Assembly (NCBI RefSeq): GCF_003018255.1
Contig: NZ_CP027440.1
Source: Escherichia coli
GTDB taxonomy: Bacteria; Pseudomonadota; Gammaproteobacteria; Enterobacterales; Enterobacteriaceae
Length of the DNA: 64,000 nt
Strand: one strand, 5' to 3'
Part shown: positions 7,788 to 16,285 of the stretch, one piece after another
Position numbering within the stretch: the stretch's first letter is position 1
How the letters are laid out: each line of letters begins with the position of its first letter
Made by a program: the position numbers and the translations under genes
The notes under the pieces: generated by a model
Seen by the model: only the letters and a program-made list of their open reading frames with translations
Databases searched by the model: none
Told to the model about the DNA's origin: nothing

Positions 7788-9185
7788 TTACCCCTTAAAC
7801 GTTAACCACGGTCGAAATCTGACCGCTGGCTGAATTAATCCGGCTTCTTGTTGGGCTTCGATAACCGGACCAATATCTTTATAAGCCGCTGGCGCTTCTT
7901 CAAAACGTCGTTCTTCGCGCAATGTGACGCATTGCCACGGCAGCGTTGACTCTTCAGTCGCGCGTGAGCGCATGGCCTGCCGACGCTGGCTGCGTCCTGC
8001 TCCGTGACTGCATGACCACAGCCACTCCGGGTTGCCGCAACCTACCGCAAGCCACGAATAATCGCCCATTGAACCGGGGATTAACGCCAGATTGCCCACT
8101 CGTGCCGGTGTTGCGCCTTTGCGATGAATATTCATTTCATGCTCGCGAAGGATGATGTTATGTGGCACATCCACCACCAGATGCGAATTGTCCTGATGAA
8201 AGAGATTGGCAAGACATACGCGCACCATTTCGGCAATTGTGACGCGATTTAACCATGCGTAACGCGCCGCCATTCCTATCGCTTGTAGATATTCCTCCGC
8301 CAGTCCGCCTGCCAGACCATATAACCCGCTTTGTGGATGTTTATGTCCGGTGGGCCATTCAGCACGGGCGCGATCCATCCAGCGTCTTCCGACGTAAAAG
8401 CCAACATCTCGCGATCCACTGTGGATCATCACCACAATATCGCCTGTTTTCAGCCCTTGTTGCCAGGCTACATGGCGATCAACCACGCTATCAACGACCT
8501 GAAGTTCAATAAAATGATTACCTGAACCCGGCGTACCCAGACAAGGATCGCGGAGTAATGCGCGGTCCGTTGCCTGCAGGGCGGGTGGGGCATAACGCGA
8601 ATGACTGTTATGCTCGTTAAGCCCAATGCAGCGGTCAATCTCTTGTACCATTCGGGGGATATTCGTGCGTATCCAGAGACCTTCTGATGGCAAGGTCGAC
8701 ACGCAATCTGCCGGTCCGCCATCAAAAAGCGCGGTGAACGCCTGTGCGGATAACGGAACATCGCGCTCATTTTGCAGTAGCACTTGCGTTAACCGCTGAG
8801 CGATGACGTCTTTATGCGCTTCGGCTTGCTCAAGTGTTAATCCGGTCGTCAGCAGCCGCATGCCACAAGAAATATCGGTGCCGATGGCGGCGGGAATGAC
8901 TAAATCCGGCGTTGAGGCCACCACCGCGCCAACGGGGACGCCATTGCCGGGATGAAAATCTGGCGTCGCGCACGTCTGGCGCACATAACCTGGGTGGTCT
9001 GGTAGCTTCACTTCTGCAAAATCAAGCAGTTGTGTTACTGCTTTTTCTTCCAGCGGCAGTTCGTCCGGCAGCAGTACGCGGGCACTGGCACCTGATGGAC
9101 GAGATAATGAAACAATATTGTTGGCGCGGGAAAGTTGGATCCCTTTGCGCAGAAAGGCTTTATCAAGCCTTGAAAGATGATGCAT
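7788..9185 (-). CDS. RtcB-family RNA 3'-phosphate ligase paralogue (orphan, no rtcA/rtcR/prfH neighbour)
   Basis: 465-aa ORF; blocks IPAAIGTDISCGM, GSGNHFIELQ, MIHSGSRDVG, ALIPGSMGDYS, CSHGAGRS and C-terminal AYKDIGPV...KG align by eye to E. coli RtcB; about 29-residue N-terminal extension; ATG at 9185. Confidence 0.85.
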   Translation of the reverse strand: MHHLSRLDKAFLRKGIQLSRANNIVSLSRPSGASARVLLPDELPLEEKAVTQLLDFAEVKLPDHPGYVRQTCATPDFHPGNGVPVGAVVASTPDLVIPAAIGTDISCGMRLLTTGLTLEQAEAHKDVIAQRLTQVLLQNERDVPLSAQAFTALFDGGPADCVSTLPSEGLWIRTNIPRMVQEIDRCIGLNEHNSHSRYAPPALQATDRALLRDPCLGTPGSGNHFIELQVVDSVVDRHVAWQQGLKTGDIVVMIHSGSRDVGFYVGRRWMDRARAEWPTGHKHPQSGLYGLAGGLAEEYLQAIGMAARYAWLNRVTIAEMVRVCLANLFHQDNSHLVVDVPHNIILREHEMNIHRKGATPARVGNLALIPGSMGDYSWLAVGCGNPEWLWSCSHGAGRSQRRQAMRSRATEESTLPWQCVTLREERRFEEAPAAYKDIGPVIEAQQEAGLIQPAVRFRPWLTFKG

Positions 9186-9436
9186 AACGCTGTCCTGAAA
9201 TATAGACGTTAAACAACCCCCTGTATGGCGAGGGTAATTTTGTCTTTCCGGTCAGCAGCCAGCAAAAGGGAAAGAAAACGCGCGTAGTGTATGTGGCGAT
9301 AGCAAGTGTTACAAGTGGTAAATCTGGCTTATTGTTAAAGAGGAATTATCTTTTGTGAAGTCTTTTAAGGCCATGACTCATTCAATTTAACCGGACATAG
9401 ATAATATATAACATAGGGTATCTAAATTTATCATTG

Positions 9437-9575
9437 TATACTTGTCATAATTCAAGTTGCATGTGCTGCATCGATGTTCGCTCACCCAGGTCACTTACTT
9501 ATGTAAGCTTCTGGAAATTCATTATTTGTTCCCTTCCTGCAACTTGACTTATTTAGAGTATATTCATGTATACAC
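9437..9575. repeat. ERIC (IRU) repetitive element
   Basis: Contains cgctcaccc.ggtcacttacttatgtaagct (reverse complement of the ERIC2/ERIC1R primer regions) with inverted termini tgtatac...gtataca; near-identical to the copy at 46501-46630. Confidence 0.8.
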
Positions 9576-10060
9576 ATCGAGATTTCAGCCAGCAGACGCG
9601 CATCTGGCGTGCCGTGGCGGATCTGTAGCGGTTTTTGCAGAGTTTCGGTGAGGCGACGGCAAGCTGCAACGCCGTGGTTAACGACCGGTAAACCGTTCAG
9701 TTTAGAGGTTCCGGCTTCGATGGATTTTTTAATCCCTACAGCCGCTTCTTCGTACCGATTCAGACGGGTATATGCATCGATGGTGCTCGGCAGCAGATCG
9801 CACTCTTCTTGTAGTGTTTTCAGTAGTTCGATGTGTTCGTCCATCAGCGCCACACCTGCGCGCGGTTGGCTAAGGGTTTTACCTTCCTTGTCTGCTTTCA
9901 ACAGCGCAAGAGAGAAGCGTTTATGCTCAGGAATGGTTTGTTGGTATTTAACGCCATCTTCAAAGTTTTCAACATCCTTGCCGGTTTCCCAGGTTTTCAG
10001 TACCTGTTGCCGCTCGGTCATGAATTCGTCATGGGTTAATTTCTTATTTCGAAGTTCCAT
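9491..10060 (-). pseudogene. glmE: glutamate mutase E subunit (methylaspartate mutase epsilon), truncated
   Basis: First about 160 aa ([50 protein letters not shown]) match GlmE/MutE; homology ends near 9580 where the frame runs into the ERIC element and stops; full-length GlmE is about 480 aa. Confidence 0.75.
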
Positions 10061-10078
10061 TGATTGCAGCCTTAATTG

Positions 10079-11467
10079 TTATAGGGTTAAGCATTGAATA
10101 CTGGTGCGCGCGGCGGCCAGCGGATCGACTCTGGCGACGTTTGCCAGCAGTGGTAATAGCCCCCGGGAATCGCGGTAATATTCAAATTCGGTCGGTAAGA
10201 GAATGCGTTTACCGTCGTCGTTTAACTCGCGGTATTTCAACCAGTGATGCATATCGAACTGACTGGCACGCGAGAGCCATCCGCCGGATCCGACGACTTT
10301 ACGCACGGTTGTCAGGTCACGTCCCATCTGTAAATCGACATTGCCGACGCAGGTGCAGACCTCTTTTTTGGTGCCCGCATGTCTTTCGGTGGCATAACCC
10401 ACACACAGTCCGGCCAGGACGGTATCGAAATATTTTTCTTCTGCATTCGCGGGTAAGTAGTCGGGATGAGCGACTAGATGACGGAGGTAATGATAAAAAG
10501 CGTCCAGCTGTGCGGGTTGCTGAGCAAAATTCACATTGACTAACTCTTTCGCACTTTCACCAACCACCATTGCCGAGACGCGCATTCCCAGATCTCCTTC
10601 CACCGTCCGTTTTACGAAGGGTTCCGGTACGCCATGTAAAACAGTGTCGGGCGAGAGCGTGTTGGCACTGGCGGAATAGACATCGGTGGTTGCGCCACCC
10701 ATGTCGATCAGCATGAACTCTTTCCAGCTGTGATCGACATTACTGATTGCCTTAACCAGTTCAAAGACTGTCCACGGTGTCGGCATTGGTTCTTCGCCTG
10801 TTTTATCAACAACGACATCCAGCCCTTTCCCTTTAACGATGCGTTTAAGGAATATGTCGCAGATAGCCTGGCGTGCAGCTAAAGGGTTCGGATGGTCAAG
10901 ATCGGGCAGAACGTTGTCGACGATGGTCAGGTCTTTATGCCCGAGGATCTCCTGCACCTCGTCCTGAATATCCCGGTTTCCGGCATAAATAATGGCGCAG
11001 TCGAGTTTGGATTCTGCCAACACACGGGCGTTATTCAGTCCGTAGCTTTCTTCTCCGCCATCGGTGCCGCCGGTGAACAAGAGAATATCGGGCTGCGTTT
11101 CTTCCAGTGCCTGGATATCACGGCGGTTCAGCTTGTAGGCGTAAGATTGCGCAATTTTAGCACCCGCAGAGTGAGCGGTTACTTTCGCGGTTTCCAGGGT
11201 GATAGAAGGCACCAATCCCATTGCGGCAACCGCCAGCCCACCTTTGGCAGAGGAGGAATACTTCAATGCAACCTCACCACTGTTTAACAGGGGGAGGGCA
11301 TCATCTACGTTTAACACCTGGTCCAGGCTGGAGAAAAACCCCTTCGCCAGATGATGGGTGGTGGTTGGGGTCAGTACGTGGTTAACCAACGTTAACGCGT
11401 CCCCCTCCCGGGCGAAGAGGGCTGCTTTGGTCCACGTCGATCCAATATCGACAGAGACGATTTGCAT
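10079..11467 (-). CDS. glmL: glutamate mutase accessory protein GlmL/MutL (actin/Hsp70-like fold)
   Basis: 462-aa [21 protein letters not shown], between glmS and glmE as in clostridial mut operons; start overlaps glmS stop. Confidence 0.75.
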   Translation of the reverse strand: MQIVSVDIGSTWTKAALFAREGDALTLVNHVLTPTTTHHLAKGFFSSLDQVLNVDDALPLLNSGEVALKYSSSAKGGLAVAAMGLVPSITLETAKVTAHSAGAKIAQSYAYKLNRRDIQALEETQPDILLFTGGTDGGEESYGLNNARVLAESKLDCAIIYAGNRDIQDEVQEILGHKDLTIVDNVLPDLDHPNPLAARQAICDIFLKRIVKGKGLDVVVDKTGEEPMPTPWTVFELVKAISNVDHSWKEFMLIDMGGATTDVYSASANTLSPDTVLHGVPEPFVKRTVEGDLGMRVSAMVVGESAKELVNVNFAQQPAQLDAFYHYLRHLVAHPDYLPANAEEKYFDTVLAGLCVGYATERHAGTKKEVCTCVGNVDLQMGRDLTTVRKVVGSGGWLSRASQFDMHHWLKYRELNDDGKRILLPTEFEYYRDSRGLLPLLANVARVDPLAAARTSIQCLTL

Positions 11468-11916
11468 CAGATTGCCTCTTCAAGAATACGAGTATCAACG
11501 TCATGACGTTGGTTGATATCGTGGGCCATCAGCTGACAAACATCTTCTAAGTCATGACTTGGGGCAAAGACGCGATCAAATCCCATCTCTTTGAATTTGG
11601 TTTCCACGTCAGCGAAGTCATGTTTTCCGACCACCAGGTTACCGCCCACATAGAGCAGGATGTCCCCCAGTCCACGCTCGATGCAGCGTTCGCGCATGCC
11701 CAGACAGTCGATATCGCCATGCCCATAGATAGAGGAGACGACAATCGCGTCAGCACCAGTTTCAATGGCAGCATCAATATATTCGTCCTGGCTGACCATT
11801 ACGCCCAGATTAATAACTCTGAAGTCATGGTTGCTAAAAACGCGGTCCAGAACTTTATTGCCTACTGCATGGCAGTCCGCGCCAATAACGCCAATCACAA
11901 GTGTTGCTTTCTTCAT
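11467..11916 (-). CDS. glmS: glutamate mutase S subunit (B12-binding sigma subunit)
   Basis: 149 aa from [24 protein letters not shown] with DxHxxG cobalamin-binding motif; GGA-type SD upstream of ATG at 11916 (the track ORF extends further 5'). Confidence 0.82.
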
Positions 11917-12463
11917 GGGTAATCCTTTGTAAGACAGAGAGTAAAATAAGTTACACACGTCGTATTTATGGCCGCTCATAACGGCACAGGTTTAATATCA
12001 CAGGAGTGTCTTTATCTGACCGTAATGTTGCAATTGATCTATTTTCAAAATGTCTTTCGGGAAATGATTGTTTAAAGTGTGTTTTCAAATTCTCATGTTA
12101 ATTCAGTGTGTTATGTCAACTAATGTCATGAATGTTAAATTTTTAAAATTAACTTGATTTGATGTATTGAGATAATTGTGATCAACTTCTAATTTGCATT
12201 TTAGTGATATGGGGTTAGCCATGAGTAAATGCATTTCATAAAAGTTAAGTCGAATTTCACTGCAATTCATCTCTGCTTAATGTAAAAATAATGTTGAAAA
12301 TAACAAATAATTAATGATTCATGCGAATTATGACCTTTGTTAGCTCTTTTGATTTTTCGTAAAAAAGAAAAGTACATGAAGGTGCTACCAGTACGAGAAA
12401 CGTTAATCAAAAGTTTTATTACGTCTGGCAATAACGCAGGCCATTTTTCGCGACAGGAGGGAT

Positions 12464-12886
12464 TTAATCAGTATAATCCTCATACAATAGGTCAGGATTT
12501 ACAGAACCGTTAACGGGGTTTTGGTGTTGAAATTTAGAAATGGTGGAGTCAATCAATGAAGACAGTATCGAAAAAATGACTGTGTCAGAATTAATTTCAA
12601 TTAATCCTTCTCGTTGTTGACCAAAAAAGATATTTATCTTGATTTCATTTGTACTACGGAAATCAATATGTAGTAATTTTTGATCGCTGAGATTTTCTGT
12701 TTCATAAATGTTTTTGGCGATAGTCGGATGTATTGATGCCAGACATCTGCTCAGATAAGCCAGATCCTTTAGGGAACACCCCGCTGAGTAGAGGATGTCA
12801 GAGAATTTTTGTGTGTCAACTGTTGGCTCTGAAGCGTATGTTGCATTGACTGGAAGGGTGTTGAAGGAGATTTGAGATGGGATCAT
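12464..12886 (-). CDS. hypothetical protein, 140 aa, no recognisable family
   Basis: Uninterrupted ORF in a strongly AT-rich block, co-directional with and 80 bp downstream of the 314-aa ORF; weak SD; no motif I can identify. Confidence 0.5.
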   Translation of the reverse strand: MIPSQISFNTLPVNATYASEPTVDTQKFSDILYSAGCSLKDLAYLSRCLASIHPTIAKNIYETENLSDQKLLHIDFRSTNEIKINIFFGQQREGLIEINSDTVIFSILSSLIDSTISKFQHQNPVNGSVNPDLLYEDYTD

Positions 12887-12966
12887 TATTTAAATCTTTC
12901 CGTGAGTAATAAAAATTAATCCCCGGGCATTGTTTAGTAATATTTGCCACAGGGGATATATAAAAA

Positions 12967-13911
12967 TTAAAGTATTTGATTGGCATCGGTTAACTGATCA
13001 ATAACCAGTGCCAGATTGGTAAACATTTTGAAAAAGCGATACTGGCTCGGAATATCTCTTTCAAAGACGAAACATTCAATGTCATTGTTTGAAAAATAAA
13101 GGACTAGTGATGCTGATTCGTCAGGAAAAATATGGAAATATATCTGGTTACCAGAAGGAGGATAGTCCAGAAGAAGGGTATCTTTGCCCGTCACATACCT
13201 GTTGTGGTCGTGGATGCTGCGCTCACACTTCATCAGAGGTGTCATGATACTCATGTATTCATCTGATGTTAATATATTAAAATCACCATCCATTTTAAAG
13301 AAACGATAAAGTAACAGTACATCCTCTTGCGTAACCGGTTCGTTTGTTTTTAGAGGGAAATAAGTGGGAACCAGAAGATGAGGTTCTAATCTATTTTGTT
13401 GAGCGCTATAACTAAATTTGAACATAAATTCCGGATCGCTCATCAATTGAGCGACATAATTATGCCTGGCTTCAAAAATTTTAACTTTTATCAGGTTAAA
13501 TAAGTCTGTTTCGTCATCCTGTATTAAAAGACATTGGCCATAGCAGCCAGGCTTTTTTTCATTATAAGCAGAAACGGTTATTCTGTCAGGAGTGTCAACG
13601 TTATATCCAAAAGCCAGATAGTGACCTTCCTCATCGAGATTTGTTTCCAGGTTATTTAAATTCATCACATGAAGTGTTTGCAATGCTGATTCAATGAGCT
13701 GTTGACTCTCTGAGGTAAATGTTTCGCGCTGCGTTGTATAAAGTGTATCGATTCCAACGACTATCCGATGTGGGTCAAGGATGGCGGCAATCATCTTTAT
13801 TACCTGCACAGTCATGGGTGATGTCATTGATTCTTTATCTGTTTTTAGAGGATCATTAGATGGCCAACCTGAGAAGCGATTGACAGCAGAACTGATAATA
13901 TCAGGACTCAT
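12967..13911 (-). CDS. hypothetical protein, 314 aa, no recognisable family
   Basis: Long ORF in AT-rich DNA with GAGG SD 9 nt upstream of ATG at 13911; no long hydrophobic segments, no P-loop or other motif recognised. Confidence 0.6.
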   Translation of the reverse strand: MSPDIISSAVNRFSGWPSNDPLKTDKESMTSPMTVQVIKMIAAILDPHRIVVGIDTLYTTQRETFTSESQQLIESALQTLHVMNLNNLETNLDEEGHYLAFGYNVDTPDRITVSAYNEKKPGCYGQCLLIQDDETDLFNLIKVKIFEARHNYVAQLMSDPEFMFKFSYSAQQNRLEPHLLVPTYFPLKTNEPVTQEDVLLLYRFFKMDGDFNILTSDEYMSIMTPLMKCERSIHDHNRYVTGKDTLLLDYPPSGNQIYFHIFPDESASLVLYFSNNDIECFVFERDIPSQYRFFKMFTNLALVIDQLTDANQIL

Positions 13912-14339
13912 AGCAGCAACCTCATTGTAATCAAGCGAGGCGCTGAGCGTACTCGGCTATAGAAAAACTAACTTGCAAAAATCGCTCATTTTTCATTTAT
14001 CAGGCGAAAGTGGTCTCTGTTCACTCAGAAACAATCACTCCCGCTAAGTCATACCTGTTTCATCGATACATTTAAGTGATTATTACTAATGAAACAATAA
14101 CATAATGGGCTTACGGCCGGTGCTCATAAACGCAACAATCAATTAACTTTGATAAAAATATGTTATGTAAAATAGCAACAAATTGGCTAATCTAATCAAT
14201 TGGTATTATAAAAAGTGGATAAGGCGGTTCTGTTAAATAAAACACTGGTTTTTTATCTATACCTTTTCATTGTAATAATTGTGTTGCATAAATATTTCAC
14301 AATAAATTAACAATAAAATCACCAATGATCTATGGTTTA

Positions 14340-14713
14340 TACATAATTAACATATTTGGTTGATTTTGATATAAATCAATTTTTAATTCTTGAAAAAAAT
14401 CTGCAAAACACGATAAATTGTCGTAGATCAAATTGGTGAGATCGTGACAATTTCGCTATAAATTGATCACTGTCGAAAAATGCAAATTTGCTCAATAAAA
14501 ACCTGTTTATTGTAAGGATTTTGCGGCGTAATATAATTACGGGATCAATTTGGTTTATTCATTAACACATTTGTAACTTTTTTATCATTGTCTTTTCCTC
14601 TTTTGATGAAATGGCAACGATAGAGGCGAGCAAATAATTTTGTATTGGGGCATGCGTGTGACCCTTTCTAACGGGGTTCACTCTCGGAGTCTTCATGCGA
14701 TGAGCAAGGAGTC
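14340..14713 (+). promoter_or_regulatory. cydAB promoter/regulatory region with FNR-type sites
   Basis: TTGAT-ATAA-ATCAA at 14356-14369 and TTGTC-GTAG-ATCAA at 14418-14431 match the FNR consensus TTGAT-N4-ATCAA; AT-rich upstream of cydA. Confidence 0.6.
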
Positions 14714-14716
14714 ATG

Positions 14717-16285
14717 ATGTTAGATATAGTCGAACTGTCGCGCTTACAGTTTGCCTTGACCGCGATGTACCACTTCCTTTTTGTGCCACTGACGCTCGGT
14801 ATGGCGTTCCTGCTGGCCATTATGGAAACGGTCTACGTCCTTTCCGGCAAACAGATTTATAAAGATATGACCAAGTTCTGGGGCAAGTTGTTTGGTATCA
14901 ACTTCGCTCTGGGTGTGGCTACCGGTCTGACCATGGAGTTCCAGTTCGGGACTAACTGGTCTTACTATTCCCACTATGTAGGGGATATCTTCGGTGCGCC
15001 GCTGGCAATCGAAGGTCTGATGGCCTTCTTCCTCGAATCCACCTTTGTAGGTCTGTTCTTCTTCGGTTGGGATCGTCTGGGTAAAGTTCAGCATATGTGT
15101 GTCACCTGGCTGGTGGCGCTCGGTTCAAACCTGTCCGCACTGTGGATTCTGGTTGCGAACGGCTGGATGCAAAACCCAATCGCGTCCGATTTCAACTTTG
15201 AAACTATGCGTATGGAGATGGTGAGCTTCTCCGAGCTGGTGCTTAACCCGGTTGCTCAGGTGAAATTCGTTCACACTGTAGCGTCTGGTTATGTGACTGG
15301 CGCGATGTTCATCCTCGGTATCAGCGCATGGTATATGCTGAAAGGTCGTGACTTCGCCTTCGCTAAACGCTCTTTTGCTATCGCTGCCAGCTTCGGTATG
15401 GCTGCCGTTCTGTCTGTTATTGTTCTGGGTGATGAATCTGGTTACGAAATGGGCGACGTGCAGAAAACCAAACTGGCTGCTATTGAAGCCGAGTGGGAAA
15501 CGCAACCTGCGCCTGCTGCCTTTACTCTGTTCGGCATTCCTGATCAGGAAGAGGAGACGAACAAATTTGCGATCCAGATCCCTTACGCGCTGGGCATCAT
15601 TGCAACGCGTTCCGTGGATACTCCAGTTATCGGCCTGAAAGAACTGATGGTGCAGCATGAAGAACGCATTCGTAACGGGATGAAGGCGTACTCTCTGCTC
15701 GAGCAACTGCGTTCTGGTTCTACCGACCAGGCGGTTCGTGACCAGTTCAATAGCATGAAGAAAGACCTCGGTTACGGTCTGCTGCTGAAACGCTATACGC
15801 CAAACGTGGCTGATGCGACTGAAGCGCAGATTCAACAGGCAACCAAAGACTCCATTCCGCGTGTAGCGCCGCTGTACTTCGCGTTCCGTATCATGGTGGC
15901 GTGTGGCTTCCTGCTGCTGGCAATCATCGCGCTCTCTTTCTGGAGTGTCATCCGCAACCGCATTGGCGAGAAAAAATGGCTGCTGCGCGCCGCGCTGTAC
16001 GGTATTCCGCTGCCGTGGATTGCTGTAGAAGCGGGCTGGTTCGTGGCTGAATATGGTCGCCAACCGTGGGCTATCGGTGAAGTGCTGCCGACAGCTGTGG
16101 CGAACTCGTCACTGACCGCAGGCGATCTCATCTTCTCAATGGTGCTGATTTGCGGCCTGTATACCCTGTTCCTGGTGGCAGAATTGTTCTTAATGTTCAA
16201 ATTTGCACGCCTCGGCCCAAGCAGCCTGAAAACCGGTCGCTATCACTTTGAGCAGTCTTCCACGACTACTCAGCCGGCACGCTAA
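14717..16285 (+). CDS. cydA: cytochrome bd-I ubiquinol oxidase subunit I
   Basis: [20 protein letters not shown]..., 522 aa; the track ORF starts one codon earlier at 14714. Confidence 0.96.

Follow-up and report, generated by a model that had tools for sequence, protein, structure and literature searches.

A stretch of 64,000 nucleotides of an Escherichia coli chromosome (contig NZ_CP027440.1, assembly GCF_003018255.1; hereafter, the window) carries, between the genes glmS and cydA, a cassette of two uncharacterised open reading frames (ORFs), which we call ORF-A and ORF-B. Both lie on the minus strand and are separated by a gap of 80 bp; an initial annotation of the window, made from its sequence, had described two co-directional frames of 314 and 140 codons with this spacing, and their coordinates and lengths are confirmed (Table 1). 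It had also placed them in DNA more AT-rich than any other in the window. In agreement, the 1-kb bin at 12001-13000 has a GC content of 0.335, the window minimum, and the next two bins have 0.386 and 0.370, against approximately 0.51 elsewhere. GC content at third codon positions (GC3) is 0.35 in both ORFs, compared with 0.51 in glmS. The GAGG Shine-Dalgarno (SD) motif reported upstream of ORF-A is present, while the start of ORF-B has only a weak SD-like GGAAAG. Of the two non-coding flanks of about 480 and 400 bp that had been proposed, the one on the low-coordinate side stands, since the spacer between ORF-B and glmS measures 484-547 bp depending on the choice of glmS start. The figure for the high-coordinate side does not hold: ORF-A and cydA are separated by 802 bp, a divergent control region that ORF-A shares with cydA. 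The methylaspartate mutase genes glmS/glmL (minus strand) end near 11916-11979, and cydA (plus strand) starts at 14714. In the near-identical strain JNE23-011 (99.9% identity), the Prokaryotic Genome Annotation Pipeline (PGAP) calls both ORFs 'hypothetical protein'.

Table 1. Features of the cassette and its flanks, in window coordinates.
Feature	Coordinates	Strand	Description	Basis
ORF-A	12967..13911	minus	314 aa, ATG start; PGAP name 'hypothetical protein'; ECs_0767 in O157 Sakai	ORF list
ORF-B	12464..12886	minus	140 aa, ATG start; ECs_0766 in O157 Sakai	ORF list
Hairpin in the ORF-A/ORF-B spacer	12919..12957	minus	AUCCCC.G.GGCA / UGCCCGGGGAU; just after ORF-A	RNA fold
U-rich tract	12906..12918	minus	UAAUUUUUAUUAC; directly 3' of the hairpin	read from sequence
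Shine-Dalgarno GAGG	13920..13923	minus	8 nt upstream of the ORF-A ATG	read from sequence
AT-rich ORF-B/glmS spacer	11917..12463	minus	only short ORFs (40-58 aa)	
Cassette-linked AT-rich upstream DNA	13912..14340		distal half of the intergenic region between the divergent ORF-A and cydA	
cydAB-proximal regulatory region	14341..14713	plus	homologous part in all E. coli	

ORF-A and ORF-B are genuine protein-coding genes. At the local base composition, a frame of 314 codons would stay open with a probability of 2e-10 and one of 140 codons with a probability of 5e-5. ORF-A and its counterpart in Escherichia albertii both have exactly 314 codons and align without an indel, despite differing at 215 of 945 nucleotides (22.5%); with that many random substitutions, the frame stayed open in only 0.15% of 20,000 simulations. 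Purifying selection on both genes is real but weak, and it is several-fold looser than in glmS. Using the Nei-Gojobori method to estimate the ratio of nonsynonymous to synonymous substitution rates (dN/dS), we compared ORF-A with eight other alleles and obtained values of 0.39-0.52 in the five informative comparisons, with dS as high as 0.51-0.53 for E. albertii. The three nearest alleles have only 4-12 differing sites and give scattered ratios, from 0.26 to 2.9. The corresponding values are 0.20-0.30 for ORF-B and 0-0.14 for the neighbouring glmS over the same loci. The excess of synonymous changes is significant for ORF-A against E. albertii (p = 8.8e-6) and for ORF-B (p = 5e-4 to 4e-3), with the tests on both genes together ranging from 8.8e-6 to 0.017.

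As far as sequence comparison reaches, both encoded proteins are orphans with no detectable relative or assignable fold. The initial annotation had recognised no family, motif or transmembrane segment in either of them, and broader searching leaves that assessment intact. Sequence and profile searches of Pfam, NCBIfam, PADLOC and PDB returned nothing significant for either protein, and PADLOC-DB v2 offered no family for either at E <= 1. No toxin, trafficking or enzymatic domain was recognised in Pfam, NCBIfam or PDB, and neither protein contains a P-loop or an HExxH motif. The best sub-threshold matches were to Intu_longin_2 (E = 0.17) and, for ORF-B, to phrog_24553 (E = 0.051), the sole PHROGs match and a non-significant one. 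A hidden Markov model of ORF-A searched against 1.84 billion (1.84e9) protein representatives gave 14 matches, all of them pieces of ORF-A of 36-131 residues from different parts of the protein. Word-indexed searches recovered only Escherichia/Shigella proteins, with identities of at least 64% for ORF-A and at least 50% for ORF-B; relatives of ORF-B were sought by word-indexed search only (single sequence and profile), which could miss distant ones. In every source, the proteins are named 'hypothetical' or 'uncharacterized'.

Both proteins are acidic (isoelectric points (pI) of 4.7 for ORF-A and 4.65 for ORF-B) and soluble, and neither has a hydrophobic segment, the highest Kyte-Doolittle means over 19 residues being 1.25 and 1.37, respectively. 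AlphaFold2 models built on shallow alignments reached a mean predicted local distance difference test score (pLDDT) of 43.5 for ORF-A and 39.3 for ORF-B, and we draw no conclusion about the fold from them. A Foldseek search against AFDB50 found only self-matches at E <= 0.001. The low-confidence secondary structure comprises helices, a three-strand meander and a long helix, an arrangement seen twice in ORF-A and once in ORF-B. Because this predicted strand/helix pattern recurs in all three segments, we considered a tandem duplication of an ORF-B-like domain within ORF-A, and rejected it on BLASTP (E = 1.2), hhalign (E = 0.06 over 28 columns) and shuffled Smith-Waterman comparisons (z = -0.8 to 1.3).

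The 1.45-kb cassette is present in 1,135 of 5,426 complete E. coli genomes (21%), at identities of 90-99.9% and, in all but 19 of them, of at least 95%; the pair is missing from the other ~79%. There is essentially one copy per genome, all but one place on chromosome records, and at every E. coli locus examined the cassette sits between glmS and cydA. No copies were found on phages, and the three 'plasmid' matches are records of 0.73-4.9 Mb that look like mislabelled chromosome sequence. In K-12, which does not carry the cassette, mngB is followed by an intergenic region of 846 bp and then by cydA. In a scan of 100,044 species genomes (one per species), the only relatives came from E. albertii, from Escherichia sp. 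MOD1-EC7003 and from two contigs of metagenome-assembled genomes. These two contigs, L015 and L016, belong to GTDB representatives labelled Collinsella sp. and Citrobacter sp., and match the window with identities of 98-99% for the ORF-A protein and ~97% for the ORF-B nucleotide sequence; they are probably mis-binned E. coli.

Some E. albertii strains preserve the same gene order, namely cydA, ORF-A, ORF-B, glmS, glmL, glmE and mal. Because E. albertii has this synteny, the arrangement predates the split between E. coli and E. albertii. The pair has been inherited vertically at one locus since that split, with losses, and is dispensable. The proposal that the DNA was horizontally acquired therefore calls for a qualification, since it was in place before the two species diverged and has descended vertically from then on. 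Losses take several forms. In other E. albertii strains, ORF-A adjoins cydA and the glm genes are gone together with most of ORF-B. ORF-A is intact in most E. albertii loci and frameshifted in the type strain of that species; it is broken by insertions in MOD1-EC7003, and both genes are truncated in Shigella dysenteriae. Within E. coli, insertion sequence (IS) elements split the cassette in one strain, and a 1-nt deletion allele alters the C-terminus of ORF-B in some strains with an intact ORF-A. At all E. coli loci examined, bar one IS-disrupted strain and one error-ridden assembly, ORF-A is intact.

Several further observations concern individual loci. In MOD1-EC7003 (L018, 8117-9320), the ORF-A remnant contains short inserts whose translated motif, …TSSCMC…CVRSP.SL.YVSS.GF..LP.SCNSNYL…, is repeated on both strands, which suggests elements of the repetitive extragenic palindromic (REP) or miniature inverted-repeat transposable element (MITE) type. 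E. coli MEI003 (L013, 1501-2250) has a duplication of ~327 bp that creates a second, partial ORF-B downstream of the intact copy, annotated by PGAP as an incomplete hypothetical protein. At an E. albertii-type locus lacking the glm genes (L002, 11786-12562), ORF-A is followed by a gene for a 258-aa protein with a signal-peptide-like N-terminus and no Pfam match on record, which looks like an outer-membrane protein; in the E. albertii type strain (L017, 9862-10206), the sole ORF of the corresponding region has 114 aa and matches the C-terminal portion of the 258-aa protein. Identity to the window also differs by gene in L010, L012, L015 and L016 (in L015, 99.8% for ORF-A and 96.7% for ORF-B), and ORF-B alleles form two classes, distinguished mainly by residues 115-133, a pattern that hints at recombination within the cassette.

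Within E. coli, ORF-A and ORF-B co-occur as one block. In E. albertii, three loci (L023-L025) combine an intact ORF-A of 314 aa with an ORF-B interrupted by an in-frame stop at codon 36, and a fourth (L002) retains an intact ORF-A with ORF-B mostly deleted. The E. albertii loss removes exactly the N-terminus of ORF-B, and the 90-aa remnant might keep activity. The spacer between the genes contains a predicted hairpin. Across seven alleles, including those of E. albertii, 94.8% of cells pair, and two base pairs show compensatory changes (AU/GC/UA and CG/UA); when the 3' partner was slid by 1-3 columns as a control, pairing amounted to only 26-53%. Rfam gave no matches in 11000-15000. On the simplest reading, the hairpin would be a terminator-like or RNA-stability element that closes the ORF-A transcription unit. 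Since a conserved terminator-like hairpin lies between them, ORF-A and ORF-B would not form a tight operon. Together, the persistence of ORF-A without ORF-B and the predicted hairpin argue against an obligate toxin/antidote operon with ORF-A as the toxin.

Upstream of ORF-A, the cassette is accompanied by DNA of its own. The ~430 bp at 13912-14340 are common to O157, MOD1-EC7003 and E. albertii and are unrelated to the K-12 sequence at this place, whereas K-12 aligns to the cydA-proximal ~370 bp with 83% identity (over 14341-14800), including blocks that are nearly invariant. Judged by its position, the 13912-14340 segment is the likely site of the ORF-A promoter. The cydAB upstream region is present in two very different forms among E. 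coli lineages. Its whole length of 800 bp is common to cassette-bearing E. coli, MOD1-EC7003 and E. albertii, and a comparison of K-12 (L003, 6613-7458) with window positions 13912-14713 shows one strongly diverged patch and no relation further upstream. On the other side of the cassette, the spacer between ORF-B and glmS has 91% identity with MOD1-EC7003. The only candidate for a mobile-element boundary, a 24-nt inverted repeat with 75% complementarity (12050-12073 / 14029-14052), was set aside as probably due to chance in AT-rich DNA.

The initial annotation had called for an examination of expression, and the locus proved to be almost silent. In published RNA sequencing (RNA-seq) data from O157 covering 11 conditions, the four coding sequences (CDSs) of the interval are near-silent, with values in lysogeny broth (LB) of 0-2 reads per kilobase per million mapped reads (RPKM). 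For cydA, the same data give an RPKM of 13-212 in ten conditions and of 2 in the eleventh, LB with antibiotics. Near-silence and AT-richness together fit silencing of the H-NS type. In E. coli, H-NS is reported to repress cydAB, and ArcA to relieve this repression (Govantes et al, 2000, cited in PMC3708157). Our search of the literature found no H-NS chromatin immunoprecipitation or hns-mutant data for the locus, and nothing was found in the supplements of other papers on enterohaemorrhagic E. coli. H-NS-type silencing of the islet is nevertheless a natural reading of its AT content, its low expression and the K-12 cydAB promoter data, and is probably in operation.

We consider it somewhat better than an even bet that ORF-A and ORF-B are an old, H-NS-silenced, weakly constrained accessory pair of orphan genes restricted to Escherichia. 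The AT-rich islet, flanked by the glutamate-mutase (methylaspartate) cluster on one side and the cydAB control region on the other, was in place before the two species separated, E. coli and E. albertii. Xenogeneic silencing of the H-NS type would keep it nearly untranscribed and would also cover the adjacent cydAB promoter. Transcription of ORF-A would run divergently from cydA, from the cassette-specific 430 bp upstream of ORF-A to its own terminator-like hairpin; ORF-B might depend on read-through or be expressed on its own. Both products would act only when silencing lifts, as dispensable, niche-specific accessory factors, with ORF-A as the functionally autonomous partner and ORF-B as an optional companion that serves as no obligate antidote.

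The islet resembles other sites at which orphan genes lie in H-NS-silenced, AT-rich DNA of enterobacteria. It shares with them a GC content of ~0.34-0.39 in a genome of ~0.51, genes with no homologue beyond the genus and trace transcription in laboratory and environmental conditions, as well as fast evolution (dN/dS 0.2-0.5), variable presence and recurrent decay. It differs from them in its age, its synteny being common to E. coli, E. albertii and a cryptic Escherichia lineage, and in carrying neither mobility genes nor scars; its own silencing by H-NS is putative.

Several points weigh against this explanation. It is descriptive at its core and assigns the proteins no biochemical function. 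H-NS occupancy, on which it leans, is inferred, and the correspondence between the Z-numbers of the RNA-seq study and our ORFs is unconfirmed, so that the expression argument rests on all four CDSs being near-silent. A consensus promoter scan of the minus strand at 13912-14340 detected no promoter-like site upstream of ORF-A, and the promoter and terminator scans together gave no more matches than in shuffled sequence. The hairpin, compared across a small sample of alleles, has a 15-nt loop, and the folding energy of the 96-nt stretch as a whole is unexceptional (z = -1.18), so that it is a putative terminator at most; a simple terminator scan, with loops limited to 3-8 nt, missed it. The structure models, with their pLDDT of 43.5 and 39.3, are too poor to exclude a known fold. 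Finally, a dN/dS of 0.4-0.5 in ORF-A and repeated pseudogenisation would also fit genes that are being lost.

The last point leads to a rival explanation, according to which the two genes are decaying relics of an ancient acquisition, now functionless, whose apparent constraint is residual or an effect of sampling. Near-silence in 11 conditions is in keeping with it, as are a dN/dS in ORF-A several-fold above the 0-0.14 of glmS, absence of the pair from 79% of E. coli, pseudogenes in the E. albertii type strain, MOD1-EC7003 and S. dysenteriae, the IS disruption in one strain, circulating frameshift alleles of ORF-B and the low confidence of the structure predictions. A neutrally drifting ORF-A, however, would have stayed open with a probability of only 0.0015, yet it is intact and free of indels in E. 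coli, at the examined loci with the two exceptions given above, and in most E. albertii loci; the synonymous excess is significant in both genes. We regard functionless relics as unlikely. Still lower stands the suggestion made for the locus at the outset, a toxin-immunity, abortive-infection or anti-phage defence pair with ORF-A as effector and ORF-B as neutraliser or sensor, which we judge very improbable. Like known two-gene toxin-antitoxin, toxin-immunity and defence modules, the cassette consists of co-directional genes, a large one followed by a small one, in accessory AT-rich DNA, and a wholly new system of uncharacterised proteins would escape exclusion by homology. Unlike them, it matches no PADLOC model, has no recognised toxic or enzymatic domain and lies outside any mobile or defence-island context: no integrase or tRNA, no convincing flanking repeat and no defence gene nearby were found at the cassette, whose neighbours are glmS/glmL and cydAB, and no copy resides on a phage or a genuine plasmid. 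Defence systems are expected to show a horizontally mobile distribution, whereas this pair occupies a single syntenic locus in a single genus. The two genes are, moreover, separated by a conserved terminator-like hairpin in an 80-nt gap and essentially untranscribed, and the large gene outlasts the small one, ORF-A being intact at E. albertii loci whose ORF-B is not full-length and, in E. coli, beside a C-terminally frameshifted ORF-B. The last point bears on one polarity: the expectation that a toxin never occurs without its antidote would fail only for ORF-A as the toxin, and a pair with ORF-B as the toxin would be compatible with the alleles seen.

Two further explanations assign the genes to known cellular systems. 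ORF-A could be a substrate of a type III secretion system (T3SS), exported by E. coli type III secretion system 2 (ETT2) or by the system of the locus of enterocyte effacement (LEE), with ORF-B as a small acidic partner, chaperone or second substrate. As in pairs of T3SS effector and class I chaperone of the LEE/ETT2/Salmonella pathogenicity island 1 (SPI-1) type, a larger, AT-rich, lineage- or genus-restricted gene here adjoins one for an acidic protein of ~140 aa (pI 4.65), and both N-termini are polar and of low charge. The fraction of Ser, Thr, Pro, Asn and Gln in the first 25 residues is 0.56 in ORF-B, the top value among 55 window proteins, and 0.44 in ORF-A, the joint second (window mean 0.26, standard deviation 0.10), on a crude, home-made and unvalidated index. 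Among the carriers are E. albertii, O157:H7 and CE10, lineages with a reported ETT2 or LEE; many carriers, on the other hand, have no LEE. Neither protein has sequence or profile similarity to effector or chaperone families in Pfam, NCBIfam or PDB, and the cassette lies outside any prophage, exchangeable effector locus or T3SS island. Class I chaperones adopt an alpha-beta-beta-beta-alpha-beta-beta-alpha fold, from which the prediction for ORF-B (three helices, three strands and one helix; unreliable at a pLDDT of 39) departs, and the segment that E. albertii loses is precisely the N-terminus of ORF-B. A role as a secreted protein, suggested by N-terminal composition, the acidic neighbour and the carrier lineages with a reported ETT2 or LEE, is a lead only, and a rather improbable one, as is the T3SS pairing as a whole. 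The weakest of the four rivals, largely refuted and highly improbable, treats the genes as accessory or regulatory parts of the adjacent glutamate-fermentation operon (glmSLE/mal), the next genes downstream on this strand. In E. coli, in some E. albertii and in MOD1-EC7003, the order is indeed always ORF-A, ORF-B, glmS, glmL, glmE on one strand. However, a glutamate-fermentation cluster has been reported in Klebsiella, Citrobacter, Salmonella, Yersinia and Morganella (PMC4682846), yet relatives of ORF-A are confined to Escherichia and relatives of ORF-B were found only in Escherichia/Shigella. Some E. albertii strains have an intact ORF-A and no glm genes, and in the window strain both ORFs are intact although glmE is truncated and the rest of the pathway has been replaced; the 484-547 bp between ORF-B and glmS also speak against a common operon.

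A more far-reaching possibility is that ORF-A, with or without ORF-B, founds a new family with a new fold that is expressed only when H-NS repression is lifted, for example in the low-oxygen gut, given the control region shared with cydAB. Its role would then be that of a secreted or host-interaction factor specific to Escherichia, or of a conflict module (toxin or defence) that has so far gone unseen. We regard this as a long shot.

The neighbourhood of the cassette is itself variable. In the window, the glutamate-fermentation cluster (7788-11916) is truncated: only the first 162 of the 480 residues of glmE remain (9491-10060, minus strand), while glmS and glmL are intact. The glmE remnant is followed by a lone gene resembling RtcB-family RNA ligases (7788-9185, minus strand), which does not reach the NCBIfam cut-offs and gives no match in PADLOC, and beyond it lie mngB, mngA and mngR. 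Where the window has mngRAB, O157 Sakai carries the full cluster, with genes for a LysR regulator and a cob(I)alamin adenosyltransferase, fumD, a transporter gene, mal and glmESL. The interval between sucD and cydA is evidently a hotspot of gene replacement.

If the explanation that we favour, an old and silenced pair of Escherichia orphans, is correct, the cassette is an ordinary case of something common in E. coli pangenomes, and it would become notable only on proof that the proteins are secreted or toxic, or that the cassette acts in cis on cydAB. A false lead is removed, in that no evidence for a defence system was found at this locus. What the locus offers is a clean, well-bounded orphan gene of 314 codons, kept over the whole divergence of E. 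coli and E. albertii, with no detectable relative, and usable for studies of orphan-gene evolution. In addition, for cydAB, an operon central to respiration, the cassette-type upstream region extends the AT-rich tract by ~2.7 kb, which could affect the control of cytochrome bd by H-NS, ArcA and FNR.

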